Virus genome (UHGV): UHGV-1374671
Strand: one strand, 5' to 3'
Origin: a virus
Length of the DNA stretch: 64,000 nt
In this document: positions 10,014-42,188 of the stretch, in pieces
How the letters are laid out: every line of letters starts with the position of its first letter
Numbering within the stretch: the first letter of the stretch is position 1
The notes under the pieces: model-generated
What the model was told of the DNA's origin: nothing
Database searches by the model: none
The model's input: the letters and a program-made list of their open reading frames with translations, nothing else
Program-made: the position numbers and the translations under genes

Positions 10014-10630
10014 GCGAGCTTCCGATCAACAAAGACACGTTTGTGACCACCATGGCGCTGCTCGGGGTGCGCGAACTGGGGCTGGAATCCCTGGACTGGG
10101 AGCCGGAAATCCTCAGAGACGCCTTCGAGGACGCCTATGGGATCAAAAAACTGTCCCAAAAGCTGTTCGACAAGCTGAACTGCGGGTATACGCTGATCGG
10201 TACTGACTCGTTCACGTCGTCCATAGAGGCGTTTCTGGCGGCTACGGCGGTTATGAACAACCGCGTGTTCGAGGCGGACGAGATTCCCTACTGTACTTTT
10301 GAGATGTGCGCCTGGAGCGTGTGGGAATACATCAACCTGATGGGCGACATCGAGGACGGGAAACCAACTGATCAGTTCAGTCCTGACATCATTGAGTACA
10401 TTCGCCAGGCCGCAAACGAGAACGGGATCTCCAGATTCCCCTTGTGGCTAAAGTTTGCGGAGCCAGAGAACAACCTTCCTGACCTGTCCGGCGACATCGA
10501 CCAATTCGAGATGTATCAGGAGCGACAAAACGACCGTATCAGTGACATGAATGGGTTCGTTACCAAGCGTCAGGAAGATCTTACAGCTGAACTTACGAAA
10601 ATGCAGGAACTTGGTTTTCTGGGGAACTGA
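10010..10630 (+). CDS. hypothetical protein
   Basis: 206 aa ORF, ATGA overlap with previous gene. Confidence 0.45.
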   Translation: MSELPINKDTFVTTMALLGVRELGLESLDWEPEILRDAFEDAYGIKKLSQKLFDKLNCGYTLIGTDSFTSSIEAFLAATAVMNNRVFEADEIPYCTFEMCAWSVWEYINLMGDIEDGKPTDQFSPDIIEYIRQAANENGISRFPLWLKFAEPENNLPDLSGDIDQFEMYQERQNDRISDMNGFVTKRQEDLTAELTKMQELGFLGN

Positions 10631-10631
10631 C

Positions 10632-11057
10632 ATGATCAAACTTACCTACACGAAAGTGGCTGCTCTCAGGAAGTTGGCTTATGGCGGGGATATGGGAGAC
10701 GGTTCCTATTACGACCGCACGTACATCCCGCTTCCAGGACTGGATGAGTGGGACCCGGAGCTGAACAAGGAGTATAACAACGCTGATGCGCTCATCAAGG
10801 AGCTGGACAGTTGGCTCCCGATGTACAAAAGACATCTCAAGTCCTTTGCCAAGGACCCGGACAACTCCGTCATGGTCAGTCAGCACGCATACAACGTGAA
10901 CGACAATGGGGACGTGGACGAAATCCCTCTGTCGGAGTGGGTGGCCCGCTACAATGCTGCCAAAAAGGCAAAAGATCCGAAAGCGCTGCGGGATATCGGC
11001 TCATACGCCTTCTACAGGTACGCTGAGCCCAGGAAGAAATTTCTGGGCATTTTCTAA
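10632..11057 (+). CDS. hypothetical protein
   Basis: In-frame ATG 2 nt after previous stop (ORF track gives 10551 as frame start). Confidence 0.4.
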   Translation: MIKLTYTKVAALRKLAYGGDMGDGSYYDRTYIPLPGLDEWDPELNKEYNNADALIKELDSWLPMYKRHLKSFAKDPDNSVMVSQHAYNVNDNGDVDEIPLSEWVARYNAAKKAKDPKALRDIGSYAFYRYAEPRKKFLGIF

Positions 11058-11146
11058 CGAAAATAGCTTAAAATCGCCCACTTTTAGGGCATAATAAGGT
11101 GGATGGAATTTAACATCCGGTTGCTGGGACCTTAACCGGCTGATCT

Positions 11147-11179
11147 GCTCCTTCTCATCGAAGGAGCGTTTTCATTTTT
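11147..11179 (+). terminator. putative Rho-independent terminator
   Basis: GCTCCTT-ctcatcg-AAGGAGC stem-loop followed by GTTTTCATTTTT, about 90 nt after the stop at 11057. Confidence 0.55.
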
Positions 11180-11249
11180 ACACTGGCTTGATTTGATCGG
11201 TGATTCGCCGACCGTGTTGATCGTCACAAAGCGGTACTGAAGTCGCAGC

Positions 11250-11430
11250 ATGACGAACTGGATCCTGGTCAGGAACCGTTCTGAGAATCAGACGCTCATC
11301 CTTCCCAGCCTCGCTTGCGGAGCTGGGAAGGAACATCGTCTCTCAAAGAGTAAACTCTTCGAGTGAACTCTTCGAGTGAAGCGACACGCTTCAGATTCCC
11401 AGAACTTACTTCCGACCAGGATCCATATTT
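11250..11430. repeat. imperfect ~30 bp inverted repeats flanking ~150 bp that contain a 10/12 bp hairpin and a 2.5x tandem 13-mer (GAGTGAACTCTTC)
   Basis: GGATCCTGGTC...GTTCTGAGAATC at the left end is mirrored by GATTCCCAGAAC...GACCAGGATCC at the right end; CCTTCCCAGC/GCTGGGAAGG hairpin; tandem repeat 11357-11392. Confidence 0.5.
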
Positions 11431-11465
11431 ATACTGCGTGAAGCCAGATTTTCTGATTTGAGTTG

Positions 11466-12683
11466 TCCTATGCTTCGTAGGATTGAATGTTTAGTGCGTG
11501 AATGCATTGAAATTACAATCGTTCTTTCACACGCAGCGAACGGGATCCCTTCGTTTCCTTCCTCGGTAACGGCACGCCGTTACCGGATACGTCAACGAAA
11601 GGGATCCCTCACGCTGCATTGTTCATTCTCAGACTGCAAGAAATCAGAACAGCCGGTACGTTGGGGCTGTAAATCCAATGAGCAAACTGGAACTTTGCAT
11701 ATGCTTCGTATGCTGATGAACCTGGTAACTGACACCAGTAAGTATCGATGTGACATGGGCTGCGCTCTGAGTCGCGATCTGTTCACCGGGCTTAAAACTC
11801 GCAGCCTGGCGGCTGCGTGTTCACAGCCACGTTCACAAACGCGACTCAGAGCGCTTTTCGCCCTTGTCTTGAATATGTCACCGCCATCAATAGCAGTTTG
11901 CATTTTCTACTCCAGATATAAAATCCTCTATGACCCGGTATGTGGTTCGCATACAAGCCCAGCAGTCAGATTTGCCTGTTGAAATGTGAAACCCTGCGAG
12001 AACCATGAACCTTCCTGGAAGTGGTTTTCCAGGAAGTTCATTTCGTCTCGCTGTCTCGGGTTTCAGATAGAGGTGTGTTTGTTGAATTTCTGTATGATTC
12101 GTACAGGTGATGTAGTGTACGACTGTCCATGTAAACAGCATGGTCGTTACCACTATTACGACTCAACTGGACCTACCGTCTGGCGCCCGCTACCTTAACC
12201 GGAATGCGAGGCGCCTGACGACGGTCCATTGAGTCTACATAGTTATAACAACCGCTTCAGAACAAACACCGTCCTTACTGATTTTGAATTTTGCCGTGCT
12301 TCGCGGCAATGTGTGCGGCACCAAATCCAGTGTCGGAAACAAGGTTCTGCATACAAACCGGCTCCCTCCTGAATTTCTGCCTTAGATGCGGGGATCGCCC
12401 CCGCATCTACAGCCAAAATTCAGCGGGTTCCGGCTTGACTTTGAACCATTAGAAAATCAGTCGATTACTTGAATTCTTTGGTGCTTCGCCAAAGTGCGCG
12501 TATGTCTGGAATACGTGTTTAAACAAGAATGAGCTTGCATCAGTACGACGACCAGTCATGCAGCGCCTTCGTCTTCTTTCAGAAGTACAAAGGACGCATG
12601 CAGACTGGCGTCTCCCTATCCCCAAGCATATTCTTCAGAAGTAATCAAATTACGCGAATTGACTAGGTCAGTGCTTCGCTGAC
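11466..12683 (+). repeat. array of five stem-loops with invariant 7-nt loop TGCTTCG and covarying 5-6 bp stems
   Basis: tccta-TGCTTCG-tagga (~11466-11482); gcata-TGCTTCG-tatgc (~11697-11713); ttgccg-TGCTTCG-cggcaa (~12291-12309); ctttgg-TGCTTCG-ccaaag (~12476-12494); gtcag-TGCTTCG-ctgac (~12667-12683). TTGAAT/TTGACT-like hexamers lie 4-8 nt upstream of three of the five. Confidence 0.7.
12384..12408. other. very stable 11-bp perfect hairpin (TAGATGCGGGG-atcgc-CCCCGCATCTA) without U-tract
   Basis: seen directly in sequence. Confidence 0.6.
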
Positions 12684-12858
12684 ACGGGAAAACGTAGCGG
12701 CATCCCTGATGGAGTAATGACGTTCATTTACCTGCAGGATACCAGCCTACACGAACACATCGATCCCTTGGCTTCCGTCGAGCTTCGACGAAGCTCAGAC
12801 TCCACCAAGGAGATCTTATGTTATTCGTTACGGCCTGGACACCTGCTGGCAATTCATC

Positions 12859-13239
12859 TCATTTTGAATTCGCGTTCTTTCCGGCTTCCCGTTTCTCGAA
12901 TTCAAGCGCGACAGCGGGAATCGGCATGTTCAGCTTTCTGCGTTGCTCACAGGCCTCCAGAATGCGTATGCGGAAGTCCTTGGCGATGTCCGCCAGCGTA
13001 TCCCATCCTCTGATCCCGTACCTGAAATAGTGTGAGACAGTGAGCTGGGTGTCGTTGTACTTCTCGATAGCCTTTCCAAGCGGGAAGATCACGTCCCGCT
13101 GGCCTTGCCTTCCACGAAGCACGATATCGCCGTTCACAGCCTCCAGTAAACCGATTCCACCAAAGGTCTGCGTGGAATCCTGCAGACTGGAATATCTGTC
13201 TGCTTTCGGCTTTCCTGCTTCTTTTTTTACATTGTCCAT
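12859..13239 (-). CDS. hypothetical protein, translationally coupled downstream of terminase large subunit
   Basis: 126 aa minus-strand ORF starting 11 nt after the TerL stop. Confidence 0.4.
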   Translation of the reverse strand: MDNVKKEAGKPKADRYSSLQDSTQTFGGIGLLEAVNGDIVLRGRQGQRDVIFPLGKAIEKYNDTQLTVSHYFRYGIRGWDTLADIAKDFRIRILEACEQRRKLNMPIPAVALEFEKREAGKNANSK

Positions 13240-13250
13240 GCTGGCGCTCC

Positions 13251-15086
13251 TTATATGAACTGGTTGTCAGGTGTTATTACGGATGCTCTCAAATCCACGG
13301 CTTCCTTGAAGCGCTCGAAATCCCCTCTGGGACCAAACACTTCGTCGTCCATGATCTTGTTGTGGTTCTCGTCGAAGTCCAGTACGGACGCGTCGTATCT
13401 GGAGCCGATTTTGGGATATGCTCCGAAGTGGTCCCATATCTGGGAGCATCCGAAGTTGACGGCATGCGCGAAGTCGTCAGGCGCTCCCGGCTTCTTGATG
13501 ATCAGCACGACGGTTTCGTTCCCCATGGACTTTCTGGGATCCTCCCGAAGGGCCAGCAAATCGCGCTGGAAGGCCTTCTCATCGGTTTCGGCGAATCCGG
13601 GCAGTCTGACCCGGGTTGCCTTGATCGACATCACTGTGATCGCCAGAGAGCGGCTTTTATCAAGGGTGTAGTAGTACAGGTCCGACTCACGCATCCCGGT
13701 ATGGGGAACCATCACATCCCCGGCACGGGGCCTGACGTAGTTGATGGGAATGACGATCAGCCCGGGAATGTCCCGCAGCCCCTGGTGGTTCATGATCTCC
13801 AGCCGGGCGAACCCGGCCCCGCCGTTGTCGTAAGTGAAGGCGTCGGCACCGGTTCCCCGTATCCAGTCCATGATCTCGTTCGCTTCATCGGTAGGAGTGA
13901 CGCCGTGCTTGATGCGCTTCCCGTACAGCACGTCGATCACGTCCGAATCCCGCCGCAGCCCCAGCACGGCATACGCGGTGTACGAATCGCTGACCATGGA
14001 ACCGCCTGACCAGTCCACCGCAACCGTGATGTACGAGTACAGATGCTTCAGCCCACGTACATCGGCAGGACGCTGCACGGAGATGTCATGCGTGGCCTTC
14101 TGCAGGTCGGACATGGTCAATGGGCTGGTGGCCGCATCGTAGGGCCACCCGAACACTTCGTTGTACAGCGCCAGCGGCGCATAGTTCTCGATCTTGTCCA
14201 GCAGCTTGTTCCACTTGTCCTGCGACAGGATGTGAAGCGGGTGCACTGTCTGCGAGATGTGATATCCGGGAAACGACAACTGGCGTTCCGGTCTGGCGTG
14301 CACGTATCCGCCGTTCTTGGGAAACACCGGCTTTCCGCAGTGGGCGCATACCGGGCCGTGCTTGCCGATCATCTTCAGCAGGTGCTGTTCCGGGTTCGGG
14401 ATGTTGAACTTGTTGCAGTGCTCGCAGCGGATCACCCACTCGGCCTGGCTGGAGCGGTTCCACAGCAGCGCCAGTGTGGTATCGGTGGTTTTGGGTGTTC
14501 CGGTGTACCGGGCGAAGCCCCAGAAAATCGAGGCCGACATCATCTCGTTACCGATGTCAATGAACTCGTACTCAATGTCTTGCACTTCATCCCACGTGGT
14601 GCTGGCCACGTTCGAGATACCGCGAGCCCGATCCGGTGACTCGAACATATGTTCTGCATAACACATGGATCCATTTTTAAATTCGCGTAAAGCCATTTTC
14701 TGCAATTCCGTGCTCTGAATGAACTGGGTTCGGATAGGGCAGGAGGAAAGGAGGGGTCTGTAAACAGTATTCACTAAACGCTGCACCTGGTCCGCTCTGG
14801 GCTGGATCAGCACTGTGTGGTAGTAGGGAATCAGCATGTTCCTGAGTCCGATATCGGCGGATATGCTGTACGACTTACCAAGCTGGCGGCCGCACATGTA
14901 AACAGAATGGGGAGACTGGACTGTGCTGAACATCGGTGCGAACTGATAGTGCAGATGCAGCGTCATGGGCTTTCCATTCAGCCGGAACAAGCATAGGAAA
15001 GGGATCAACGTCTTCAGTGATCCCTTCCTGATCTTATCGTAGGCATCCGCAAAGATGCTGTTCAGTTTTGTCGTTGAATTCGTCAT
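13251..15086 (-). CDS. terL: terminase large subunit (ATPase + nuclease)
   Basis: 611 aa; Walker A-like CGRQLGKSY; Walker B-like WDEVQD; ARYTGTP; C-terminal RNaseH-like nuclease region (VAVDWSGG, DNGGAG); CxxC...CxxC. Confidence 0.85.
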   Translation of the reverse strand: MTNSTTKLNSIFADAYDKIRKGSLKTLIPFLCLFRLNGKPMTLHLHYQFAPMFSTVQSPHSVYMCGRQLGKSYSISADIGLRNMLIPYYHTVLIQPRADQVQRLVNTVYRPLLSSCPIRTQFIQSTELQKMALREFKNGSMCYAEHMFESPDRARGISNVASTTWDEVQDIEYEFIDIGNEMMSASIFWGFARYTGTPKTTDTTLALLWNRSSQAEWVIRCEHCNKFNIPNPEQHLLKMIGKHGPVCAHCGKPVFPKNGGYVHARPERQLSFPGYHISQTVHPLHILSQDKWNKLLDKIENYAPLALYNEVFGWPYDAATSPLTMSDLQKATHDISVQRPADVRGLKHLYSYITVAVDWSGGSMVSDSYTAYAVLGLRRDSDVIDVLYGKRIKHGVTPTDEANEIMDWIRGTGADAFTYDNGGAGFARLEIMNHQGLRDIPGLIVIPINYVRPRAGDVMVPHTGMRESDLYYYTLDKSRSLAITVMSIKATRVRLPGFAETDEKAFQRDLLALREDPRKSMGNETVVLIIKKPGAPDDFAHAVNFGCSQIWDHFGAYPKIGSRYDASVLDFDENHNKIMDDEVFGPRGDFERFKEAVDLRASVITPDNQFI

Positions 15087-15316
15087 AATTGCCTGCCTGG
15101 TATGTGTTCACGCTCTGCTTACAGTAGACTTGAACACAAACCCAGGAGCACTAAGATGCTGGTACAGGCACAGAAGTATATGAGATCCAAACATGTGATC
15201 CCGGCAGACAGATACCTGAAGAAAGACTCTTTGGGAACGGACCGAACGCAGGAGACAAGGAGGCCTGACAGAACGGACGTCGTGTCTGTGCAGAAACCGA
15301 ACAAACAAAGATCACA

Positions 15317-15703
15317 TTGAGCAGAACACTCAACAACAAAGTATGGGCACTGATCGGTCTGCTGATCGCAGTGCCCGTTTTCATTTCACCGGTAACGGTT
15401 GTCCTGACCGTCGGAATCATGCTGTACTGCCGCGCCAACATGGCGCGCGCACTGAACCCGTGGATCAAATCCGGGCTCATGTTCGTACTGGCTGTTCTGA
15501 TGCTCAGCGTACTCAGCGCTTACGACCCGACGTGGAAGATCTGGTTCTGGACCGTGAACACGGCACTCATGCTGACCGTCTGCATGCACTTCATCGGGGG
15601 CATACTGGATGAAGCCAGGAACAGAAGGGAAACCAGAAGACTCGACTCGGAGGTCGTGGATCCTGAGTGGTACAATCCGAAGACCGGTAAGTGGGAACGA
15701 TAA
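15317..15703 (+). CDS. small integral membrane protein (3-4 predicted TM helices)
   Basis: 128 aa; long hydrophobic stretches then charged C-terminus. Confidence 0.45.
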   Translation: MSRTLNNKVWALIGLLIAVPVFISPVTVVLTVGIMLYCRANMARALNPWIKSGLMFVLAVLMLSVLSAYDPTWKIWFWTVNTALMLTVCMHFIGGILDEARNRRETRRLDSEVVDPEWYNPKTGKWER

Positions 15704-15929
15704 CCTGATTCAAATGCAGGGCTCTGGAGGCCGGGATAGGTCTTACCCATACAATGAGAGGGGTAACGACCTAAGTCGCGCCACAGGGCCCTTTCCGTTG
15801 AATTCTGGGCATTTTGGACGACTACTGACGAAATTCATTGCAACGACAGTATCCGATCATGTCATTTTCAACATGCCTGGCAACAGGCGGAGAACAACAA
15901 GAGAAAACCATGAAGAAATTCACTTAGTA

Positions 15930-16700
15930 ACGCCTAAATTAGACGCGTCTAAAAAATTTTTACAAGAAAGAAGTGATCAAGAAAGAACTGGGTGCGAGAA
16001 TCCCCGCACTGTCCACGGCAAATCATCTGAGGATCCTTGCGAGCACTGCTTGGTTCACGGGGCTTGAGGGCAGTTCCGGCATAGCCCGACAAGACCCCCA
16101 CAAGTACGGTATACCCGGCACGCCTAGTGTACTTAAATAAATTTAAGTACCTTAGTCGCGCCCGTGCATACGTACACGTGAGAGCCAGTCCAGCCATGGC
16201 GGAGCTCTCCCCTCCCCCATGACCAATCAGCGCCGCAGGCTCTCGAGACGATTTCCGCCGGGACGGCGGAAATTCTCGCCGCGTAGCGCGCGCTAGCGCG
16301 CTGAATGCGCACGCGCAGGCGCGATAGAAGATCGCGCGATCTTCTACGCGCGCCTCCCCGGCGCATACCTGCGGATCTGCGCACGCATTATGCGTGCGCT
16401 ACCCGCATCGCAGGACTTGCGCGTGCGCATTATGCCTGCCGCCCGAAATACCGCACGCCTTGTAACACGCGAAACTGGTGATGCGCTTGCGCATACCGCG
16501 CAGCGCGCGAGGATGAAGCCCGGTCCAGCGCCTGACGAAGCCTCCAACCTGCGGTATACCCACCCTTGCCCCTTCGGGCACAACCGCTAGCGCGGTTGCC
16601 AAGGCATTGGGGATAACGCAGGTTTCGGCTTCTAACCCAGCCATGCCTGCTGACGCAGGATAGCTGGGAGCCAGAGGGTGGTTGGAAGAGAAAACTGACG
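15930..16700. repeat. palindrome-rich, GC-rich non-coding region
   Basis: TTAGACGCGTCTAA (~15938); GTACTTAAAT-aa-ATTTAAGTAC (~16129-16150); TTTCCGCCG-gga-CGGCGGAAA (~16251-16271); GCGCGCTAGCGCGC; AGAAGATCGC/GCGATCTTCT 20-bp perfect palindrome (~16326-16345); GCGCACGCA-tta-TGCGTGCGC; ATGCGC-tt-GCGCAT; direct repeat CTTAGTCGCGCC at ~15767 and ~16146. Confidence 0.6.
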
Positions 16701-16717
16701 GTCACATCAGGTGAAAC

Positions 16718-17120
16718 GCAAATAGAGCGATTTTGAGGCCCACATAGCTGTCACCCCATGTCGTTGCCCGGTTTTGAGACCGATCGCCATCAGAAGGGCC
16801 TCAGAATTGATTTATCTGGTATTCGCACCGGATACCTGACCCGGCTTTCGCACCACCATCAGCTGATCCAGGTCTAAGCGCCGGTGAAAACACCGGATTC
16901 AGACGCCGGAAAACGACCGATTCAGCGCCAGGAGAACCACCGGATTCAGCGACCCTGTTCACGACTGTTAATCCCTGCGCCAGGTTTTCATGCCAGGTTT
17001 ATCGGGATTCAAATAGAGCGATTTTGAGGCCCACATAGATCGACCCCTAGTGAGAGCCCGTTTTCGACCACGTCGTCGATCAGAGACAGTCAGGAATCGA
17101 TTTATCGGGCATTTCCATCA
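16718..17120. repeat. two ~110 bp direct repeat units starting CAAATAGAGCGATTTTGAGGCCCACATAG, plus 3x ~21 bp tandem repeats and 3x GATTTATC(G/T)GG (iteron-like)
   Basis: units at ~16718-16830 and ~17010-17120; AACACCGGATTCAGACGCCGG / AACGACCGATTCAGCGCCAGG / AACCACCGGATTCAGCGACCC at ~16886-16952. Confidence 0.65.
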
Positions 17121-17286
17121 AGTTGTTGATCCGGCAACTGTCCATCAGACCCGTACCAGGATGAAACCGGGTCGCCGACATGCGCTTCTCAACCGGGTTC
17201 AGGTTGTAGTGTATGTGCACGTCCGACGACCAGGTTCACGAGCCTGGTTATTTAGTCATAAAAAGTTTAACATAAGGAGGTTATAC

Positions 17287-18420
17287 ATGTTCGAGAAGAT
17301 ACTGTTCATGGCTGACTGTCACATCAGGTCACGCACATGGACGAACTTCATGCAGCTCCAGGGAGACGCCTACTGCGCGCTGCAGAAAGTGTCCGATCAG
17401 CTGGCCGCCATGAAGAGCCCGCCGAAGGTGCTCGTAGTCGGAGGAGACTGGTTCGACGGAAACCGACCCAGTTCGTGGGACGTCAGGGAGACGTTCCGGT
17501 TTCTGAGTCAGTTCGAGCTGGTGTTGTTCGTGAACGGGAATCATGACAAGGTCGAGCCTTCGTTTCTGGAGATTCTCCAGGGACTGGGCTGTACGAACGT
17601 CAGGGTCGAGAATCTGCAGAACCAGCCCGGTCGCGTACTCCAGTTCGATAACCAGTTTTTCATAGCTGGACTGAATTGGGTGGAGAACGCTGATCAGCTG
17701 AAAGCGGCGATAAGGGAGATCGCCGTGGAGTACAAATCGCTCGGTACAGACCAGCCGCTGTACCTGGTTCTGCACACCAGCTTTCAGCATCTGCTCGGTT
17801 ACGAGGGCTCGTACAAGCTCACGATTCAGGACGTCGAGGAGATCTTCGGAGACAGCCAGGTTCGTGTGCTTGTGGGAGACATTCATACCCGTGACCTGAC
17901 TCACATCAGCAACATGAACGGAAGCTACGTTCACAGTCCAGGATCGCTGTATCCCAGGAGCTTCGACAAGGTGAACGAGGAGTACGCCGTGTCGTTGATC
18001 GACACGGGCACGGGAGAGATCAGGGACCTCGACTGTCGTGTCAGGCTCTACTACCGATACGATTACAAGAGCCGTGACGAGCTCGATCAGCTGGTCGAGA
18101 TCGCGAAGCAGGAAAGCAAGGACCTTCCACTGCCGCCGTTTATCAGGGTCGTCGTTCCGAAGGATTCTGAAGTCAAGATTCTTCAGACGGACTACGAGGA
18201 CGTCGTCATCCAGGTCGTAACCGAGGATGTTGAGGACCAGGAGGAAGTCACCGCCAGACAGCTCCAGGAACAGTACACGCTTGCCCAGGCCGTTGCCGAG
18301 GAGGCGAACGAGGACGACGACATCAGGGATCTCGCCGTGGCGCTGATTTCAGCAGACGACCCGCTGGCCGAGATCGAGGGCTGGTTGAAGTTCTGGAATG
18401 TCGTCAGATCAACGATATGA
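17287..18420 (+). CDS. sbcD: SbcD/Mre11-like metallophosphoesterase nuclease (T4 gp47-like)
   Basis: AGGAGG RBS; phosphoesterase motifs ADCH, GGDWFD, NGNHD; followed directly by Rad50-like gene. Confidence 0.8.
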   Translation: MFEKILFMADCHIRSRTWTNFMQLQGDAYCALQKVSDQLAAMKSPPKVLVVGGDWFDGNRPSSWDVRETFRFLSQFELVLFVNGNHDKVEPSFLEILQGLGCTNVRVENLQNQPGRVLQFDNQFFIAGLNWVENADQLKAAIREIAVEYKSLGTDQPLYLVLHTSFQHLLGYEGSYKLTIQDVEEIFGDSQVRVLVGDIHTRDLTHISNMNGSYVHSPGSLYPRSFDKVNEEYAVSLIDTGTGEIRDLDCRVRLYYRYDYKSRDELDQLVEIAKQESKDLPLPPFIRVVVPKDSEVKILQTDYEDVVIQVVTEDVEDQEEVTARQLQEQYTLAQAVAEEANEDDDIRDLAVALISADDPLAEIEGWLKFWNVVRSTI

Positions 18421-18429
18421 GGTCATAGC

Positions 18430-20439
18430 ATGTTCAAGTTATCGAGAGTGCGTTTGCACAACATCTGCCAGTACGACGATGCGGACATTCCGATAGAGGG
18501 CGGACTGACTGCTGTGTGCGGCAAAAACGGGGCTGGCAAGAGCAACTGCATCAGGGCCATCGCCTACGGGCTCACCGGATTGGTGGACGGTTCCTGGGGC
18601 AATCAGCAGAAGCTCCAGAAGGACGGCACCGCCGATCCTGGCTGGGTTGAGGTGTACCTGACAGGAACCGAGGATCTGGTCGTCAGGAGATTTTCTACTT
18701 CGAGTACAAAATTTCCGGATCGGATTCTGAAGACGGTCAACGGAGTGGTAACCGAGGTCGCTGTCCGCCGCAAGGAGGTGGACAAGTACATGACGGGCGT
18801 GTTCGGCATTCCAGTGCCGCTCATGTTCCAGATCATGTGGGGAAGACAGGGCAGGCTGGACGATCTGCTTACGTCTCCTCCGGCGCTGGTGAACACGTTC
18901 CTGGCTGCGGTGTTCGACACCAAGAAGCTGGACAAGCTCAGAGAGAAGCTCAAGATCCAGATCGACACGATAGCTAACATCCCGGCCGACAGCGTGACCC
19001 TGCTTGAGCGATACAAGGCCGAGCGGGAAGCGCTGCCGTCAGTGGAGAGCCTGGCGGCGTCACTGGAGTCCAGCAAGGCAGCTCTGCATGATGCGGAGGC
19101 CAGACTGGAGGAGCTGAACGACACGATGAAAGCCGGCATCACGAAAGCGTCCCTGGATGGGTGCATCGCGATGTACACAGAAGAGCTTCAGACGTCCGAG
19201 AACTGGCTTTCCAGCAATCCTGAGACGCCTGAACCGTCTGTGCCGTCCATAGACGCGGCAACCGTTGATGTCAGCCTTGCAGGCGCTTCCAACGAGCTTT
19301 CCCAGCTGCAGAACCGGCGTAACCACACTGAGCTCACGCTGCGCAACCTGGAGGCAGGTCTTCCGGTCAAGAAGACCAATCTGCAGGATCTTCGTGACAG
19401 CCATCAGTCTATTCTGGACAAGATGTCGGTGCACGACTCCGAGTGCCGGCTGTGCAAGGGCCATATCGTGGACCACGTCAGTTACGACGCAGCGCGCTGG
19501 AAGATGCTGACCGGGTACACTACCCAGGAACAGTACGAGAAGGCCTTCACGGGCAAGGAAAGCACCCTTCTGGCCGTTATAAGCGCGGACGAGGATGCCA
19601 TCCGGACAGCCAGCCAGATGATCGATGCCATGGATGTGGAGATCTCGAAGCAGCAGGAGCTGCTTCAGAACCTGTCGGAATTGAAGGCGGCACATGAGGC
19701 GCATGCAAGATGGTCTGCGACCAACGAGCTGCGAATCATGCACACCGAGAAATCTAAAGGTCTTAATGAAGCACTTGACAAGTACAGGTCGATGACTCCG
19801 ATAGACGACTCGATTCCTCAGGACATCGCCGAGCTTTCCAGCAGAGTCGACCAGCTCAGAACCGAGGTGGAGACCAGGCAGAAAGCACTGTTCAAAACAG
19901 AGGCGGATTTGAAGTATTACGACAGGTCCATCCAGGACTACGAGAAAGCGGCTCAGAGCTACCAGATCAACTCAGAGGCCCGCAGAGTGCTCACTACGAT
20001 CCGTGACATATACTCTCAGGGACGGGCCCAGGCCAGGTACCTGCGTTCCAAGATCCAGCAGCTGAACAGGCGGATCGGTTCCTACATGGAACAGACCGGC
20101 ATGCCTTTCAGCCTGTATTTGAACGAGGACACCCACGTGTTCGAGTATGTGACTGACAGCGGATTCACGCACCCGGCAGCCCACCTGTCCGGAGCTCAGA
20201 AAAGCATCTCGTCTGTCGTTCTTCAGATGGCTATGCTGTCTGTAATCGGGCCCCAGATGAACCTGTTTCTCGTTGATGAGCCATCCGAGGCTCTTGATGA
20301 TGAAAACAAGATTGTCATGAGTTCGTTGTTCCAGAGGCTCAACAACTTACTACCGTCCATGGACGGAGTGATGCTGATTGTGACCCGAGATTCGCTCATT
20401 ATTGAGAGTTGTGAAAATGTCATAAATGTAGGAGATTGA
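18430..20439 (+). CDS. sbcC: SbcC/Rad50-like SMC ATPase (T4 gp46-like)
   Basis: Walker A GKNGAGKS; long coiled-coil middle with CRLCKG zinc-hook-like CxxC; C-terminal signature LSGAQKS and Walker B LFLVDEPSEALD. Confidence 0.85.
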   Translation: MFKLSRVRLHNICQYDDADIPIEGGLTAVCGKNGAGKSNCIRAIAYGLTGLVDGSWGNQQKLQKDGTADPGWVEVYLTGTEDLVVRRFSTSSTKFPDRILKTVNGVVTEVAVRRKEVDKYMTGVFGIPVPLMFQIMWGRQGRLDDLLTSPPALVNTFLAAVFDTKKLDKLREKLKIQIDTIANIPADSVTLLERYKAEREALPSVESLAASLESSKAALHDAEARLEELNDTMKAGITKASLDGCIAMYTEELQTSENWLSSNPETPEPSVPSIDAATVDVSLAGASNELSQLQNRRNHTELTLRNLEAGLPVKKTNLQDLRDSHQSILDKMSVHDSECRLCKGHIVDHVSYDAARWKMLTGYTTQEQYEKAFTGKESTLLAVISADEDAIRTASQMIDAMDVEISKQQELLQNLSELKAAHEAHARWSATNELRIMHTEKSKGLNEALDKYRSMTPIDDSIPQDIAELSSRVDQLRTEVETRQKALFKTEADLKYYDRSIQDYEKAAQSYQINSEARRVLTTIRDIYSQGRAQARYLRSKIQQLNRRIGSYMEQTGMPFSLYLNEDTHVFEYVTDSGFTHPAAHLSGAQKSISSVVLQMAMLSVIGPQMNLFLVDEPSEALDDENKIVMSSLFQRLNNLLPSMDGVMLIVTRDSLIIESCENVINVGD

Positions 20440-24747: not shown

Positions 24748-25878
24748 GTGTTGAACAAACCACTCTATGACACGCTTGTGCGCATGTTCAAGCGTGTCGA
24801 AATCGCCAACGAAGGGCAGCATGCACGGGTCAGCAGGAAAGCGGGTACCGTGTCGGCGTGGTGTATTGAAAGGAACAACGAACACGGTGAGCAGTACCGT
24901 GTGAATTGTCCTTTCTGCGACGACCGGAACAAGCACCTCTACATTTCGTATCTGTCCTACATTCGTCCAGTCGTGAACGGTCAGGTGCTTCAGGTAGGCA
25001 AATTGAGAGCCCAGTGCTTTCGCAGAGGCTGTCTGAAGAAGATTGAGAACAGAGAATGGCTCGAAGGGCAGATCGCTATGTACAGGTTAGCTCTTGGAGC
25101 AGGTGCGGAAATTCCAAACATTGAAATCTCGGAAACAGACTCGGAAACCCTTCCCAGATACGAGGTGTCGGACGACATTTCCGTGGATGGGTTCAAGACA
25201 TGGGTACCTGATTATGAGCCGATCACAGCGCAGTCCAGGAGTGACATTCTGGAGTACCTGGCGGCTCGTCGTGTGTCCATGGATGACGTGGAATGGATGA
25301 GACTCGGCTGGGGGCCTGTCAAGTCCCCGCGTTCAGGCAACTACCTGAACAACGGCAGTCCGTTCATTCTGATTCCGATGATACAGAACAACCAAGTGAA
25401 GGGCATCCAGGGCAGGTGCCTTCCCCAGTACCTGAAGGAGGACGGCATCAAATACTGGATTCACCCTGCCTGCAGAAAACGTACTGTTGTGCTGAACATC
25501 GACATTGCCAGACAGCTCGGCCTTGGTGTCGTCTGTGAAGGCGCTTTCGATGTGCTCAGCATTGGTAAACCGGGCGTATGCACCTTTGGACATACACCAT
25601 CAGAAACGCAAAGGCGGTTGCTTACCACGTTCTCACAGGGCATCATATGGTGTCCTGACACGGACGTGACGCCGAGGCTGAATCCTATTCAGATCGCCAG
25701 GGAGCATGTTGCTGTCTGGAACGCGTCCAATGCGTTTCCGAAAGGTGCGCACGTCGTAGAACTGTCCCAGAAAGATGCCGGCAGTATGTCCCGGCAGCAA
25801 GTATGGGAGGAGATCGTTTCCCAGGTTCCTGCTCATATGCAGGACTTCCTGCTGGAGAGGATCATCCCAAACCTATAG
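24748..25878 (+). CDS. DNA primase (zinc-binding + TOPRIM)
   Basis: GTG start with GGAGG RBS; N-terminal CPFCDD...C..C zinc motif; TOPRIM acidic motif VVCEGAFDVLS. Confidence 0.7.
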   Translation: MLNKPLYDTLVRMFKRVEIANEGQHARVSRKAGTVSAWCIERNNEHGEQYRVNCPFCDDRNKHLYISYLSYIRPVVNGQVLQVGKLRAQCFRRGCLKKIENREWLEGQIAMYRLALGAGAEIPNIEISETDSETLPRYEVSDDISVDGFKTWVPDYEPITAQSRSDILEYLAARRVSMDDVEWMRLGWGPVKSPRSGNYLNNGSPFILIPMIQNNQVKGIQGRCLPQYLKEDGIKYWIHPACRKRTVVLNIDIARQLGLGVVCEGAFDVLSIGKPGVCTFGHTPSETQRRLLTTFSQGIIWCPDTDVTPRLNPIQIAREHVAVWNASNAFPKGAHVVELSQKDAGSMSRQQVWEEIVSQVPAHMQDFLLERIIPNL

Positions 25879-25895
25879 GAACAGAGGAGATCGAG

Positions 25896-26921
25896 ATGCA
25901 AGACTTAGGCGTCGTCGACGTCAGCATGCGGCACTTTGTCGGGCCGGTTCACATCCGGGTATGGGAGCCCGGAGATCCGTTCCCGACACTGGGGCCTTCC
26001 GTTGGCGTTGACACAGAAACCGAGCTGATCACGGACACGGTGAAGGACCCGCCGGTAGTTGTTACCGGCGTGTTCGACCCTGCGAACTCGAATTGCTGGA
26101 TCGTTTACTGGCAGCATACCGCAGCGTTCATGCGGGAGCTGAACAAGCGCGACATCCAGCAGAGGTACTTCAACGTCGGGTTCGACGAACAGGTGCTCGA
26201 CAACGAGGACGAGGAGAAGAGCCTTCTGACGGCTGTCGACGCAAGGCGGGTGCGTGATATGCAGATCCGCATTCACCTGCACGAGATCGCCACGCTGGGT
26301 TGGATCCGAGGCAATCTGTACAACCTGGCGGACTGTGCTCTGCACTTCCTGAATGTGACGCTGGACAAGGGTGATCCGGACGACTACGAGAACTCTGCAC
26401 GAATGACGTTTCGGCGGCATAATAAAGATGGGAGCGTTTATCGCATAACGGATGAACAGGCCAAATACCTGTGTTATGACTGCGCTTCCACCTGGGGTCT
26501 CGGAGAATCGGTACCGGAACAGCCAACCGAGGTGGAACATACCAAGGGCATGATCGTCCTGGCACACATCAGCACCAACGGCATTCAGGTCGACCCTGTA
26601 GTGTTCGACGCCATGGAGGAGAAGCTGTTCAAAGCCAGGGACGAGGCCAGGCTTCGTCTGCTGGCGTTTGGATTCCCAGATCCGTACAAGGACGTCAAGA
26701 AGGAGGCCGCAGCCGAGCGTCAGCTTTTCTACTCGGAATACAAAAAGCTGTGTGAATCGGCAGGACTGGAGTGCCATCTCGGCATGGAGGAACAGACACT
26801 CGATGACGAAGACGAAACCGTCATTCAGGTTCCTAAAATACCAAAGAAGGACTCTCTCAGGCTGATGGTCTGCTACCTGTATCGATGCTTCACGTTCGTA
26901 CACAATACCAAGAACGCGGCG
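25896..26921 (+). CDS. polA: family A DNA polymerase, exon 1 (3'-5' exonuclease domain)
   Basis: Exo I VGVDTETE; Exo II/III-like YLCYDCAS; frame hits a stop at 26924 immediately before an intron core. Confidence 0.7.
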
Positions 26922-28478
26922 TAGGTACCTTTGCGGCGTGAGCCGCATCGAAGAAGAAAGTGAATTGCTGGAAGCCTAAACCGGGAGTGTAGCCCGGCAT
27001 GGTAATCAGCAGCCAATCAACCGGATCGCTAAACTGGATTCAACCATCCAGCATGCACCGGGGAAAAGGTTCAACGATCATCGGGGTGTCCACCTGATAA
27101 GCGGCCCCGTTAGCGTGCAAGCGTGCGCGAAGTGCTCCGTGACGGGAAACCGTCACGATGATATGATCTGTGCTACCCGAAAGGGATAGGAAGCCCCAGC
27201 CTGATCAGCTGGATAAGCCGGGTGAGCGTAGCGAACTCACTTGAACAAGAACCATGAGGTCTTATGAATCGACGTAAATTCTCACATTTACGCTTGATAT
27301 TGTTGACGTACATGCTATATTAGAACCAGGTACTATAATACACGGAAGTTTTGAAGTGATAAGCAGAGCTCATACAATCAAGCTGAAACCCAATAAAGCA
27401 CAGGCGATCATGCTGGCCAAGACGGCCGGTACTGCCAGGTATGCCTACAACTGGGGATTGGCCAAGTGGAATGAGCTGTACGAAGCCGGTGAGAAGTGCA
27501 GTGCTTACAGCCTGATGAAACTTTGGCAAGAAGGCAGACCTGACTGGGCATTGGAAGTGGGCGCTGCGTGTTTGCAGCGCCCGTTCATGCACCTGGAAGG
27601 CGCCTTCAAAGCGTTCTTCAGAGGACAGCGTAAGCACCCAACCTTTCACAAGAAGGGTTTGCGGGACGGGTTCTACGTCCCGAATACTCATTTCAAACTC
27701 CGTGGTAACAAGGTTCAGCTACCCAAGTGCGGACTTGTCAGAATGACCGAGCGTATTCGTTACGCGGATGTGAAGGTTGTTTCTTCGGCAGTCAAGCACC
27801 AGGCAGACGGCTGGTATGTCGTAATCCAGGTCGAGCTTGAAGAGGAACACAGAACCGAATCCGACTCTTTTGTCGGAGTCGATGTCGGATGTACCCAGCT
27901 CGCAACAGCGAGCGACGGTACGACCTGCTGCTCACCGGCCAAGCTCAAAGACCTGGAACGTCAGCTGAAACGTAGACAGCGCTTGCTGGCACGCAAAGCC
28001 AAGGGCTCCAACAATCGAGCGAAAGCGAGATTGAAGGTAGCCCGTACCTGGCAACGAATCAACAATATCAAACAAGACACAGCTCACAAGTTCACTGCAC
28101 TCATTGCCAAGAACCACGGCACTGTTTGCATTGAAAAGCTGGATGTGAAGAGTATGCAATCAGGAGACAACGCCCTCGTAAGAAAGGGCGTGCATAACTC
28201 CTGCATGTCGGAAATCCTGAGACAACTCAAGTACAAGTGTAACAACTTTATTGAAGTTGACAAGTATTTCCCGTCCAGTAAGACTTGTTCGAACTGTGGG
28301 CACATAAACGCTGAACTGACCCTTGGGGATCGCACGTATAATTGTCCGGGCTGCGGACTGAAAATCGACAGGGATCTGAACGCAGCGTTGAACCTCCGTA
28401 AGGAGGGTCTGAGGATTTACACGGTGGGTCACACCGGCAGTGCCTGTGGAGTTGCCCGGTAACGGGCGGCGCTGAAGC
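26922..28478 (+). mobile_element. IStron-like element: group I intron ribozyme core fused to an IS605-family (TnpB-only) module, inserted in the DNA polymerase gene
   Basis: ribozyme core ~26950-27290 shares P/Q/R/S elements with the helicase intron (GAATTGCTGGAAGCC, AATCAGCAGCC, GTTCAACGATCATC, GATATGATCTG); IS left-end-like hairpin CGTAAAT-tctcac-ATTTACG (~27268-27289); tnpB 27356-28462; right-end hairpin GCCCG-gtaa-CGGGC spanning the tnpB stop; the polymerase frame reopens right after a TGA at 28473-28475. Confidence 0.7.
27356..28462 (+). CDS. tnpB: TnpB (IS605 OrfB-family RuvC-like RNA-guided nuclease)
   Basis: 368 aa; RuvC-I GVDVG; CSNCG...CPGCG zinc finger; RuvC-III DRDLNAALNL. Confidence 0.85.
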   Translation: MISRAHTIKLKPNKAQAIMLAKTAGTARYAYNWGLAKWNELYEAGEKCSAYSLMKLWQEGRPDWALEVGAACLQRPFMHLEGAFKAFFRGQRKHPTFHKKGLRDGFYVPNTHFKLRGNKVQLPKCGLVRMTERIRYADVKVVSSAVKHQADGWYVVIQVELEEEHRTESDSFVGVDVGCTQLATASDGTTCCSPAKLKDLERQLKRRQRLLARKAKGSNNRAKARLKVARTWQRINNIKQDTAHKFTALIAKNHGTVCIEKLDVKSMQSGDNALVRKGVHNSCMSEILRQLKYKCNNFIEVDKYFPSSKTCSNCGHINAELTLGDRTYNCPGCGLKIDRDLNAALNLRKEGLRIYTVGHTGSACGVAR

Positions 28479-29453
28479 AGGAAGATTCATAAGAATCGTG
28501 AACAGAACCACTCGGACGAGCCTGACGAGCTCCAGCTGTGTGCCGAGAACGTCAAAATCGTGTGCGAAATGGAGAAACCGTCACTGCGGAAAGACGCCAG
28601 GAACATGTACTCGAAGCTCCTGGAGGACTACGAGATCATGGCGTTCGACCAGGCCACCAAGGGAATCGTCATGCCGTCGTTTGTGGCGCATCTGATGGAG
28701 CACTACAACAAGCAGCGTGATTCCGGAGAGGTCGCAGCAAAGGGCTACGACTTCGGAGCCGCAGTCAAGTACGCCAGCGAGTACATCGACGATCATCCTG
28801 AATGGCTGTCGAAATCCGAGCAGATAGGTCCCAGCAAATTCTTCCAGAATCATGTGAAGGGCATCATGGAGGCCAATCCGAAGCTGGAGCTGGAGACCAC
28901 TCCCAAGAGTGGGGCAGTCAAGCTGACACTCAAGGACAAGTGGCGGTTGGAGGACAACGGCATCAAGGACAAGTTCTTGGATGCTTACATTGACTTCAAT
29001 CATTGCCAGAAATATTTAAGTACCTATATGAACCGTTTGTTCATCAAAGGGGATAATCGGATACATGCCAGGTTCACAAATATTTTGCGGACCGGACGTA
29101 CCAGCTGCACCGGACCTAACTTGCAGAATTATCCCAGCAGGGACAAGGTGTTTCCGTTGAAGAACATCTTCTGTCCTTACGATGGCATGCTGTTGTGTGC
29201 TACCGACTTCTCGTTTATTGAGTTGTGTGGCTTTGCCCAGTCCTGTTACAGCAGGTTTGGGTTCAGCGTTATGCGCGACGTCATCAACGCAGGTCTGGAT
29301 CCGCACCGCTGGTTCGCAGCGGTGATGGACAAGCTGATCAAGCCGGACCTGACGCACAAGGACGACCCGAAATGGGTCGCGGAACTGAAAGGATTTTTGA
29401 AAGCAAATGTAGACGATTCAAGACGACAAAAGGCCAAAATGGCCAATTTCGGT
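28479..29453 (+). CDS. polA: family A DNA polymerase, exon 2 (fingers/palm, motifs A and start of B)
   Basis: RTGRTSCTGPNLQNYP and DFSFIELC (motif A); RRQKAKMANFG (motif B start); frame then breaks after NFG. Confidence 0.7.
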
Positions 29454-29680
29454 CGACCATCAAGGCCGAATTAAAACTGCGGAATTAAGCGGGGAACTCT
29501 CATTGAGACGATCCGAACCGAAGCCTGGAAGGGATTCCAGTCAGGGACAGAGCATACCGGCAGGGGAAGAACTCCCATCAGCCGACACGAGGCCGCAGCA
29601 ACTGGAGAAACAACTCTGGTTGAAAAGATATGCCGAGCTGTGTGGCGACATACAGAAGTGCTGGATAAAAAGCCGGCACG
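29454..29680 (+). ncRNA. putative small group I-like intron (~227 nt) splitting polA motif B
   Basis: exon ends TTCGGT; GCCGAA 12 nt downstream can form a 6-bp P1 with a G-U pair at the splice site; GAATTAAGCGGGGAACTCT resembles the P element of the other introns; AAAGATATGCC is S-like; a G at 29680 precedes an in-frame continuation ITKLFPGALGV...EEAEF. Confidence 0.5.
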
Positions 29681-35465: not shown

Positions 35466-36207
35466 AAAGACGAAACTTCACTTCACAAGGATCAGGGCCA
35501 AAGGGGAACCGTCGTTCTTCGATCCACAGACCGATATCAGGCAGCTGTTTCCTGCTGTGGCCAAAGCGGCGATCATGACGCTGCAGGACCAGAACCCAGG
35601 GGACAAGGAACTGCAGCACGACCTGACCTACATTCACAACTGTCTCTGCATTTTCCAGATCAGGATTGCTGAGGACACCGCTCCGGTTGCCGATCAGGTT
35701 GCCGCGTTTTGCAAGGCGCTGGACAAGTGCCGCAGCTCGACCGTGTCATTGTTGAAGTCCAGATTCTTCACGATGATCATGATGCTGTTCGCGTTGTTCT
35801 GCCGGCGTGACGCCAAGGTGGATAAGGACCAGCTGTCAACCATGATGTCCATGATCCAGCTCGCACCGCTGTCCACCATGATCAGCAAGGAGCTGTTTCA
35901 GCAGGTGCAGGAGGAGCTGACGGCCAATGCTCCGGCAAAGCTGCATGACGTCTGTTATCCGGACGGGTGCAACATCATGTGCGAGGAGACCCAACAGCAG
36001 CTCAAGGGAGCAAAAGACATTATTCGTCTTTTCGTCTCTGCTTCCGGTGACACCAGCTGGGAGGCCCTGGCTGCGGCCTGTGACGAGGCATTTTCTACTC
36101 CGGGTATAAAATCCGACGCCCAGAACATTGCTCTGGCGTTGGCGTATCCGGATTACGAACACCCGTCCCTGTCTGTTGAAGTGGAGGCGGAGCATGACTC
36201 TCTATGA
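35458..36207 (+). CDS. hypothetical protein
   Basis: 249 aa ORF. Confidence 0.4.
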   Translation: MSEKTKLHFTRIRAKGEPSFFDPQTDIRQLFPAVAKAAIMTLQDQNPGDKELQHDLTYIHNCLCIFQIRIAEDTAPVADQVAAFCKALDKCRSSTVSLLKSRFFTMIMMLFALFCRRDAKVDKDQLSTMMSMIQLAPLSTMISKELFQQVQEELTANAPAKLHDVCYPDGCNIMCEETQQQLKGAKDIIRLFVSASGDTSWEALAAACDEAFSTPGIKSDAQNIALALAYPDYEHPSLSVEVEAEHDSL

Positions 36208-37003
36208 CAAGTTGCAAAGACTGAAACGGATGCAGGACCTGGTGCTGTTCAAGTGGGTTTGCGGTCAGAAACGAGTGGCCAGCAATTTCATCATGCTCAG
36301 CGATCTCAGGCTGAATACGCTTACCTGTCACGCCGGTCGCGTCGTGTTCTCCAGTGCGGCTCCTATTCTGTTCATGGAGAAAGGCAGACCGGTGATCCAG
36401 TTCCGTGACTCGGACATCATGACTGTACTGAACGGACCAAGAAAGGGGATCAACATCCTTAGCCGTTTTTTGCAGCCTGGTGAGGAGGCTTCTGCTTGCA
36501 GATATTGCGACTGGCGTGAGGTCGTGGATTCCAGCTACTGTCCTAAGTGGTTGGAAGATAAGATCATGTCCATGGGAAACAGCCCGACGTATCCGGTCAG
36601 CAAGATCATCATGCCGGAACTGTTTCGCATCAGTAAGAAGCCGGAGACTCTGAAACCGATCTTCAGCTCCAGTTTCATCGAGGACATTGGAGGCTCCAAA
36701 ACGGACTCGATGCAGGAGCTGCTGCAGAAGTTCTACAACAATTTGGACCTGTTTGGATATCACACCGACGAGGGTTATGTGATCAGCAACGATTACATCG
36801 CCACTGGAGGATGCTGCGTAGCCGCCTCCAAGGGAATCAACGCACGTACAGGAAGCAGCGTGCACATGATGACCTTGAGAGCGTTCGCAGCGGACGTAGC
36901 CAGACGTCATTGGAGTATCCAACTGGCCAGACAAACCAAGCAATCAGGAGGCAACAACAATGGAGATGTGGAAAGATCTGATACTGTCCGTAACACCAGG
37001 TGA
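36194..37003 (+). CDS. hypothetical protein
   Basis: frame start 36128; ATG at 36194 gives 14 nt overlap. Confidence 0.35.
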   Translation: MTLYDKLQRLKRMQDLVLFKWVCGQKRVASNFIMLSDLRLNTLTCHAGRVVFSSAAPILFMEKGRPVIQFRDSDIMTVLNGPRKGINILSRFLQPGEEASACRYCDWREVVDSSYCPKWLEDKIMSMGNSPTYPVSKIIMPELFRISKKPETLKPIFSSSFIEDIGGSKTDSMQELLQKFYNNLDLFGYHTDEGYVISNDYIATGGCCVAASKGINARTGSSVHMMTLRAFAADVARRHWSIQLARQTKQSGGNNNGDVERSDTVRNTR

Positions 37004-38061: not shown

Positions 38062-38070
38062 GAGGTCCCA

Positions 38071-41945: not shown

Positions 41946-41948
41946 CAG

Positions 41949-42188
41949 ATGCGGGAACCCTTGTTTAAAAGGAAGCGGCCGATCAGGGTCGTCCTGCAGC
42001 GCGCCCCGTATTACGGGTACGCTCCGATCGGCAAAGAGGGGAACAGCGGAATGAACGCGTTCAACGCAGCCTTCGAGCAGGCTGTGAAAGCCACCAAGAT
42101 GACGGTGATGGCCAACGCCATGAAACAAATCCAAAAAGAGGCCGAGCATGTAGACTCGGATCTCGATATCCGAACAATTGAGGTGTAA
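41949..42188 (+). CDS. small hypothetical protein
   Basis: 79 aa ORF filling the gap between neighbouring genes. Confidence 0.3.
   Translation: MREPLFKRKRPIRVVLQRAPYYGYAPIGKEGNSGMNAFNAAFEQAVKATKMTVMANAMKQIQKEAEHVDSDLDIRTIEV

Follow-up and report, generated by a model that had tools for sequence, protein, structure and literature searches.

The region between positions 11183 and 12875 of the window, the 64,000-nucleotide stretch of virus genome UHGV-1374671 analysed here, is likely a natural multiplexed array of eight retron-type non-coding RNA (ncRNA) genes, or msr-msd units. The window is part of a large uncultured phage, and since eight units shaped like retron templates and a retron-type reverse transcriptase (RT) occur together in this one phage, it probably makes a set of small hairpin DNAs. 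What we observe directly is the architecture of the units, their conservation and covariation, the family to which the RT belongs, the co-occurrence of RT and array among related phages, and a second example in another phage. Retrons are familiar as bacterial defence systems with a single template and as tools for genome editing. In a limited literature search we came across no account of tandem retron ncRNA arrays in nature, nor of a phage RT that serves templates unlinked to it, the nearest literature being a remark on Staphylococcus phage MarsHill and the engineered multitrons, both discussed below.

A sequence-only reading of the region had noticed five hairpins with the same TGCTTCG loop on stems that differ in sequence and stay complementary. 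All five are present on the + strand (loops starting at 11471, 11702, 12297, 12482 and 12672), with perfectly complementary arms of 5-6 bp whose sequence differs between copies, and further + strand copies carry a one-base variant of the loop, TGATTCG at 11201 and 12095 and TGGTTCG at 11943. This brings the total to eight hairpins, all on the + strand between 11183 and 12875 and 152-270 nt from their neighbours, and we refer to this element as hairpin A. The bare TGCTTCG heptamer is not enriched in the window (12 matches compared to 10.6 expected); the significance lies in the composite motif of TTGA plus hairpin, which occurs at no other site on either strand of the 64 kb window or of the flanks of related loci. 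In most copies TTGA starts 13 nt upstream of the heptamer, leaving a gap of 3 nt to the stem. What had been described as TTGAAT/TTGACT-like hexamers is this TTGA, and its distance from the stem is fixed at 3 nt and not 4-8 nt as first stated. Only GA is invariant within TTGA, the TGA stop codons found there are incidental, and distant arrays outside the training set also carry xTGA.

Conservation of the hairpin was examined in 81 copies taken from the window and from related phages. All 81 have G-C at loop positions 2 and 6, and positions 1 and 7 covary (C-G in 39, U·G in 34, U-A in 4, A-U in 3 and G·U in 1). With this covarying 1/7 pair followed by a constant 2/6 pair, the stem has 8 bp and the loop 3 nt, which agrees with the proposal of the sequence-only reading that the heptamer closes to a triloop. 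Across the copies 97% of cells are paired and the covariation score is 0.94 compared to 0.24 after shuffling, although these pair counts are partly circular because the copies were chosen for being hairpins. Independent support for the hairpin comes from the arrays of distant relatives that were left out of training. The stems differ from copy to copy through compensatory changes, and the claim that they are under selection for structure holds on both the covariation and these untrained relatives. In the window, a covariance model built from the 81 copies matched the eight array sites only (E<=1). A sigma-70 promoter or terminator reading of TTGA plus hairpin was rejected, as there is no conserved -10 element and counts are at the level of shuffled sequence. 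K-turn or box C/D, hammerhead, SECIS, nut/boxB, attC and CRISPR-repeat elements were set aside by inspection, since their order, spacing or invariant bases do not fit, and a CRISPR array is further contradicted by stems that differ in every copy and a spacing of 150-270 nt, as opposed to 25-50 nt spacers between near-identical repeats.

Around each hairpin A lies a unit of 150-265 nt with the order 5′ arm, near-invariant G, 4 nt, hairpin A, small hairpin B, long variable hairpin, AG and 3′ arm. The two arms form a closing helix of 6-12 bp with sequences specific to each unit. The 10 nt before GA form a duplex with the tail of their own unit at a median of -9.2 kcal/mol (n=68), whereas the same 10 nt reach only -4.0 kcal/mol with the tail of the preceding unit and -4.1 kcal/mol with the tails of other units, and the best pairing partner was the unit's own tail in 56 of 73 units where 11 were expected (P about 1e-31). 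In 46 of 51 units the last pair of the closing helix is immediately followed by the conserved G, a count that should be read knowing that copies were partly selected for GA; on the other side, the base before the 3′ arm is G in 44/51 units and the base before that is A in 39/51. The terminal pairs of the helix covary (TT/AA, CA/TG, GC/GC, AC/GT), and TTGA is the last two closing-helix base pairs (TT) followed by the conserved G-A. A local hairpin between an AGAA box and the next TTGA was considered and gave way to the closing helix within one unit.

Unconstrained minimum free energy (MFE) folding returned the closing helix in 6 of the 8 window units and gave a clean split into three hairpins (A, B and C) in units 3, 4, 6 and 7, a split also seen in relatives; long hairpin C measures 80-140 nt in these units and in relatives. 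The folding strength of the array structure corresponds to a z of about -6 to -7, and the region is very stable on both strands. The mini-element bounded by inverted repeats and the stable palindromes that had been listed for this region fit the closing helices and the long hairpins, respectively, and we take them to be parts of the units. Alignment, whether from unit to unit or across phages, is possible solely between close relatives, and the sequences between hairpins in the window and in the related locus L001 cannot be aligned though the layout is constant. The orthologous arrays of L004 and L019, which share 71% identity, conserve the arms, the G-A and hairpin A, with several of the long hairpins (the payload) swapped for unrelated sequences that still form hairpins.

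The hallmarks of a retron ncRNA are complementary ends, a conserved G, short stem-loops and one long hairpin (PMC8632793). The units show complementary ends that are unit-specific, a G after the 5′ arm, and short hairpins followed by a long one. For comparison we used retron Ec86 (Eco1), the sequence of which was confirmed at 100% identity in 48 E. coli genomes beside a retron effector gene. Its helix ends read TGCGCACCCTTA-G ... CTGAC-G-TAAGGGTGCGCA, so that Ec86 shares with the units complementary ends, a G after the 5′ arm and before the 3′ arm, and short msr-type hairpins followed by a long one; the G following the Ec86 5′ arm is presumably the branching G. The window phage and retrons also have in common a unit size of about 150-265 nt and an RT of the retron clade with a VTG-type motif. 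Bacterial retrons differ in having a single template within a bacterial defence island, whereas the window has eight in tandem (4-11 in relatives) in a tRNA/RNA island of a large, probably lytic phage, where the RT is unlinked (25 kb), no effector is recognised and the payload hairpins turn over very fast. About a quarter of retrons are themselves without an effector (PMC8632793). Engineered tandem msr-msd arrays ('multitrons') are reverse transcribed by one separately supplied RT (10.1101/2023.07.17.549397), which by analogy suggests that a tandem template array with a separate RT is feasible. As proposed for the window, multitrons consist of tandem msr-msd units on one transcript with one RT expressed separately, but they were built artificially from Eco1 parts, repeating the msr and the arms, while each window unit has arms and a payload of its own and shares the handle only.

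The RT gene is located at 38071-39024 on the + strand and encodes 317 amino acids with a YADD catalytic motif and the sequence RRITGVV as a VTG-type motif 7 (RRVTGVV in L058 and L059). The protein matches the PADLOC retron RT models at about 1e-41 and the NCBIfam retron St85 family at 7e-42, the latter below the curated cut-off. Its best solved structures are the retron RTs Ec67 (1.6e-24) and Ec86 (5e-19), with group II intron RTs at about 1e-7. A diversity-generating retroelement enzyme was rejected as an identity for this RT, since no template/variable repeat pair lies within 11 kb. The start of the gene is abutted by a conserved - strand open reading frame (ORF) and its end is overlapped by a gene for NAD-dependent DNA ligase, and because of these neighbours there is no room for an adjacent template. 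RT orthologues with 41-66% identity are found on the array contigs L002, L003, L004, L005, L006, L007 and L010, placing an RT on 7 of the 8 related array-bearing phage contigs tested. Among bacterial species genomes there is no RT homologue above 37% identity, for which reason we do not assign a host, and no close homologue was found in cultured phages.

A second case of this pairing is found in phage MarsHill. In a report on Staphylococcus jumbo phages, 1.2 kb of non-coding DNA upstream of a retron-like RT was hypothesised to contain its ncRNA, and that region was not described as an array (10.1101/2020.12.14.422802). In MarsHill we find five tandem retron-like units directly upstream of RT gp206, at L219 23946-24806 (MW248466 213945-214805), spaced 173-213 nt apart. 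A conserved hairpin with covarying stems, the loop TGAATACG and U·G and G-C pairs at its top recurs in each repeat, and at least three units have closing helices of unit-specific sequence: ATATTTTATTATAAA-G ... G-TTTATAATAAAAT, TTTTTAACTTAAA-G ... G-TTTAAGTTAAAA and TTTCGATTTAAA-G ... G-TTTAAATCGAAA. The MarsHill RT matches PADLOC RT_II-A (1e-39) and is 22% identical to the RT in the window. MarsHill therefore resembles the window in its tandem units, UG...CG-topped hairpin, covarying stems, G at both helix ends and retron-type RT. It differs in that the array adjoins the RT, which is the canonical retron order, the loop is 8 nt instead of 7 and an extra hairpin precedes; its lineage, host and RT are also unrelated to those of the window phage. 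Judged by sequence, then, retron-shaped units in tandem occur together with a retron-type RT in two phage groups that are unrelated to each other.

The array fills a convergent gap between + strand genes that end at 11057 and a - strand terminase operon that ends at 12859. No cultured phage has a large terminase more than 26% identical to the one encoded here (13251-15086, - strand), and no DNA similarity was found to known phages (50,697 phage records). Relatives were found in IMG/VR and metagenomes as contigs of 165-190 kb from rumen-type and human-gut samples, and about a dozen related uncultured lineages have arrays of 4-11 units at the same syntenic site and in the same relative orientation, including clades at 46-47% terminase identity that lie outside model training. 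The array region is 1.7-2.5 kb and conserved across this deep divergence. The sequence-only reading had suggested looking for the motif in relatives, and it proved to be conserved down to 46% terminase identity. No close relative of the window's own array was found, as L021, L022 and L029 share a 1 kb terminase segment only.

Transfer RNA (tRNA) genes adjoin the array in nine related loci, always on the motif strand and upstream of the array. Between one and six tRNA genes lie just upstream of the array site in L001, L002, L005, L010, L011, L017, L020, L042 and L044; in L010 the first unit begins 17 nt past the last tRNA, and in L042 the syntenic site holds six tRNAs without hairpin units. ARAGORN found 0 tRNAs in the 64 kb window, agreeing with the earlier statement that nothing in the region resembles one, and in relatives the tRNAs flank but never overlap the arrays. 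Non-Watson-Crick pairs in hairpin A, counted on the motif strand, are G·T in 21 cases and A·C in 4 despite this strand being A+C-rich, compared to 81 and 116 in the rest of the unit (Fisher p = 6e-5). From the co-orientation with tRNAs and the G·T excess in hairpin A we infer that the array is read in the + sense, within an RNA gene island. A wobble bias in the handle with none in the rest of the unit also fits a handle that acts as sense RNA and a payload that folds as complementary DNA as well. Calling the strand by whole-unit folding energy was rejected; by that measure 28 of 29 segments favour the opposite strand, but dinucleotide shuffles are equally biased, and this bias is uninformative because base composition alone explains it.

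The tRNA setting is also where the main rival to retron-type units draws its strength. The units could be structured small RNAs that are never reverse transcribed, whether stable small RNAs, protein sponges or tRNA-operon passengers cut from a tRNA-type precursor, in which hairpin plus GA would signal processing or the binding of a protein. Phage T4 species 1 and 2 RNAs and E. coli rtT are small stable RNAs processed from tRNA operons, and like the units they are structured non-tRNA RNAs in or after a tRNA cluster, probably from one precursor; however, they are single RNAs and do not have the tandem layout, the closing helix with its G or a connection to an RT. Adjoining, co-oriented tRNA genes, strong structure (z about -6 to -7), a wobble pattern in hairpin A that fits sense RNA and the lack of an Rfam match would all be expected of such RNAs. 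They would leave unexplained the Ec86-like G after the 5′ arm and the G before the 3′ arm, a long hairpin without the sense-RNA wobble bias of hairpin A, the conservation in the same genomes of a retron RT that is template-less, and a similar array directly upstream of a retron-like RT in the unrelated MarsHill. We consider this alternative unlikely. A protein-binding RNA site had been among the first guesses for the hairpin, and we count that guess as right, with hairpin A as the putative handle for the RT.

The role originally favoured for the hairpins was that of N4-type promoters, extruded from supercoiled DNA and read by a phage single-subunit RNA polymerase (RNAP). N4 early promoters have a GC-rich conserved heptamer that forms two base pairs and a 3-nt loop inside variable inverted repeats (PMC4496689), and both the form of the heptamer and the presence of an adjacent conserved sequence match. 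The hairpin form is thus alike, but its distribution, strand and context are not: the motif is confined to the array and never stands before protein genes, what looked like a conserved sequence upstream belongs to the end of a helix specific to each unit, and since the folding strand is the tRNA sense strand, an N4 template-strand hairpin would drive transcription backwards into the tRNAs. The G·T excess in hairpin A (21 to 4) speaks against it as well. A giant virion RNAP, which the sequence-only reading had suggested looking for, was not seen, as the ORFs scanned in the 64 kb window include none of polymerase size (the longest is 669 amino acids) and no RNAP domain; the contigs of relatives span 165-190 kb, so that about 110 kb of the genome would lie beyond the stretch scanned. 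Promoters of this kind now appear hardly tenable.

Signals acting in single-stranded DNA would account for some of the same features. These might be origin or primosome hairpins, packaging signals next to the terminase gene, or IS200/IS605-type or REP-like ends worked on by an HUH enzyme. Points in favour are a preference for one strand (G·T vs A·C), which top-strand-specific HUH systems also show, the position directly beside the terminase operon, the TnpB gene found in the window, and long palindromes that exist equally in DNA. Yet the ORFs scanned include no TnpA, Rep or HUH gene, and compensatory changes separate the diverged copies, where mobile elements would have near-identical ones. 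The arrays of 4-11 units are conserved in synteny and co-oriented with tRNA genes, the spacing of ~200 nt is unlike that of iterons, and such signals would not call for a closing helix with a G at both ends. Nothing specific was found in support of the replication-origin or primosome hairpins suggested earlier, and DNA signals in general seem very unlikely. The position of the array also led us to consider a passive barrier, in which the hairpins, standing between the terminase operon and the RNA island or upstream operon, would block exonucleases or convergent transcription. The region does fill the convergent gap (11057/12859) and is very stable on both strands, but a barrier requires neither a conserved handle, nor a fixed G, nor unit-specific closing helices, and 1.7-2.5 kb is a cost that has nevertheless been conserved over deep divergence, making this explanation highly improbable.

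Several points weigh against an array of retron-type units. At 6-12 bp the closing helices are short, and energy was the basis for calling them; those of the most distant clade have just 4-6 bp, with the unit's own tail pairing best in only 3 of 6 units. A closing helix with three hairpins is also the look of a generic four-way-junction RNA beside tRNA genes. The Rfam retron msr family has no match at E<=1 in 10500-17500, and Rfam overall gave chance-level matches only; the msr family covers just a few classical retrons. A terminator-like hairpin is located just upstream of the array at 11146-11168. The RT is about 25 kb from the array with no non-coding space beside its gene, whereas known retrons carry their ncRNA adjoining the RT, and no retron effector was recognised near the RT or the array using PADLOC and NCBIfam. 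For L001, with its 11 units, no RT was detected on the IMG/VR contig, and the cases where RT and array occur together are not independent because all are in one related phage clade. Finally, transcription, reverse transcription and branching at the G are predictions from sequence, and the biological role is a guess.

With these points in mind, the retron-type array would be expected to work as follows. The array would be read from the + strand, probably as one precursor, and each unit would fold with its own 5′ and 3′ ends forming the closing helix. The G at the end of the 5′ arm would be the branching, priming guanosine, hairpin A the shared handle by which one RT recognises all units, small hairpin B an msr-like element, and the long fast-evolving hairpin the putative msd template. 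Acting in trans from 25 kb away, the RT encoded at 38071-39024 would bind the handle, prime from the 2′-OH of the G and copy the long hairpin. The product would be a repertoire of eight different small hairpin DNAs (multicopy single-stranded DNA, msDNA).

Our guess as to the role of these DNAs is that they serve as anti-defence decoys or antitoxin mimics, as the payload hairpins turn over fast. More broadly, we raise the tentative and rather doubtful idea that this gut and rumen phage clade and, independently, the Staphylococcus jumbo phages use an RT-made msDNA repertoire against host immunity. Such msDNAs might mimic the msDNA 'antitoxin' of host retrons, or they might titrate DNA-targeting nucleases or sensors; a role of this kind would explain why close relatives differ wholesale in several payloads yet keep the handle and arms constant. 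If the array is what we propose, retron chemistry is used by phages too, with 4-11 templates served in trans by one RT, and the question becomes what a virus does with a set of small hairpin DNAs. It would also explain the orphan retron-like RTs noted in jumbo phages, and would provide parts for multiplexed DNA production in cells, namely a short shared RT handle and orthogonal arms.

The eight units, all on the + strand, can be described individually. Unit 1 (11183-11447) has the 5′ arm CTGGCTT at 11183-11189, G at 11190 and the 3′ arm AAGCCAG at 11441-11447, and unconstrained MFE folding returns its 7 bp closing helix; hairpin A (11195-11213, loop TGATTCG) is followed by a long branched hairpin region. 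Unit 2 (11451-11649) has arms TTCTGATTT at 11451-11459 and AAATCAGAA at 11641-11649 with G at 11460, and contains the first hairpin of the sequence-only reading as its hairpin A (11465-11483, TGCTTCG), with a long hairpin at about 11533-11617. In unit 3 (11682-11901) the arms are GCAAACTG (11682-11689) and CAGTTTGC (11894-11901) and the G is at 11690. Its hairpins are A at 11696-11714 (TGCTTCG), B at 11715-11746 and long C at 11747-11888, the last of which holds perfect 15-bp arms at 11762-11776 and 11840-11854. Unit 4 (11925-12073) is closed by CCTCTAT at 11925-11931 and ATAGAGG at 12067-12073, with G at 11932, A at 11937-11955 (loop TGGTTCG), B at 11960-11981 and C at 11987-12065. Just before unit 4, inside the array, is a sigma-70-like promoter match (TTTGCA-16-TAAAAT, 11897-11924), a 27-nt core of which recurs with 93% identity at 36088-36114 in a coding region.

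Unit 5 (12072-12274) has the 5′ arm GGTGTGTTTGTT at 12072-12083, G at 12084 and the 3′ arm AACAAACACCGTCC at 12261-12274, with hairpin A at 12089-12107 (loop TGATTCG) and a long hairpin at about 12142-12253. The arms of unit 6 (12277-12461) are ACTGATTTT at 12277-12285, followed by G at 12286, and AAAATCAGT at 12453-12461, preceded by AG; A (12291-12309, TGCTTCG), B (12310-12341) and long C (12343-12447) lie between them, and the unit folds at an MFE of -82.7 kcal/mol (z = -7.2) with a closing helix of 9 bp. Unit 7 (12463-12646) is bounded by GATTACTT at 12463-12470 and AAGTAATC at 12639-12646, with G at 12471, A at 12476-12494 (TGCTTCG), B at 12496-12518 and long C at 12525-12635. In unit 8 (12652-12875), ACGCGAATT at 12652-12660 and G at 12661 are followed by hairpin A (12666-12684, TGCTTCG), a long hairpin region and the 3′ arm AATTCGCGT at 12867-12875, which overlaps the final codons of a - strand ORF at 12859-13239. 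Small ORFs within the array region show nothing conserved. A search of the window for antisense targets of the payload hairpins gave nothing convincing, the one match being 27 nt at 36088 in a coding region.

The RT is part of a DNA-metabolism block spanning 36960-43344 that consists of a DEDDh-like exonuclease (36960-37586), the - strand ORF (37501-38061), the RT, the NAD-dependent DNA ligase (39008-40981), a prokaryotic E2-like gene (40962-41945) and a JAB-like gene (42178-43344). The pairing of exonuclease and RT is kept in all relatives checked and the ligase is present in some, in the order exonuclease, ORF, RT, ligase, and the exonuclease and ligase enzymes of this block may process putative RT products.

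Other features of the window and its relatives were noted during the analysis. The TnpB gene mentioned above (27356-28462; IS200/IS605 RNA-guided nuclease, NCBIfam 3e-80) lies between two ORFs in the region 25803-29474. Downstream, the ORF at 28560-29474 resembles a phage DNA polymerase in its C-terminal part (phrog_17), and the upstream ORF (25803-26924) has no family match; the polymerase gene may be split by the TnpB element or by an intron-like insertion. In the terminase gene, a segment of about 1.05 kb (13535-14582, residues about 167-517) has 94-96% DNA identity to L021, L022 and L029. As these human-gut contigs otherwise share nothing with the window, the segment appears to be mosaic or recently exchanged. 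The terminase ORF of L004 and L005 is 1202-1248 amino acids and alignable over residues 168-610 only, suggesting an intein-like insertion at the same boundary as that of the exchanged segment. The terminase gene of the distant human-gut relatives L006, L007 and L031 contains 18-19 in-frame TAG codons and the RT gene of L060 has none, which suggests that TAG recoding in these distant relatives is confined to some genes, possibly late ones.

A second ORF-poor region at 15700-17050 is GC-rich with many short palindromes (GCGCGC, TAGCGCGCTA), a ~29 nt direct repeat caaatagagcgattttgaggcccacatag at about 16721 and 17011, and 'ccggattcag' repeats at 16895-16950. The hairpin model had no match in this region, which may represent an end of the genome, an origin or a further RNA. 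Beside it are an SbcD-like gene (17050-18420) and an SbcC/SMC-like gene (18430-20439), together a palindrome-cutting nuclease pair, the presence of which is notable given that the same genome keeps eight long palindromes.

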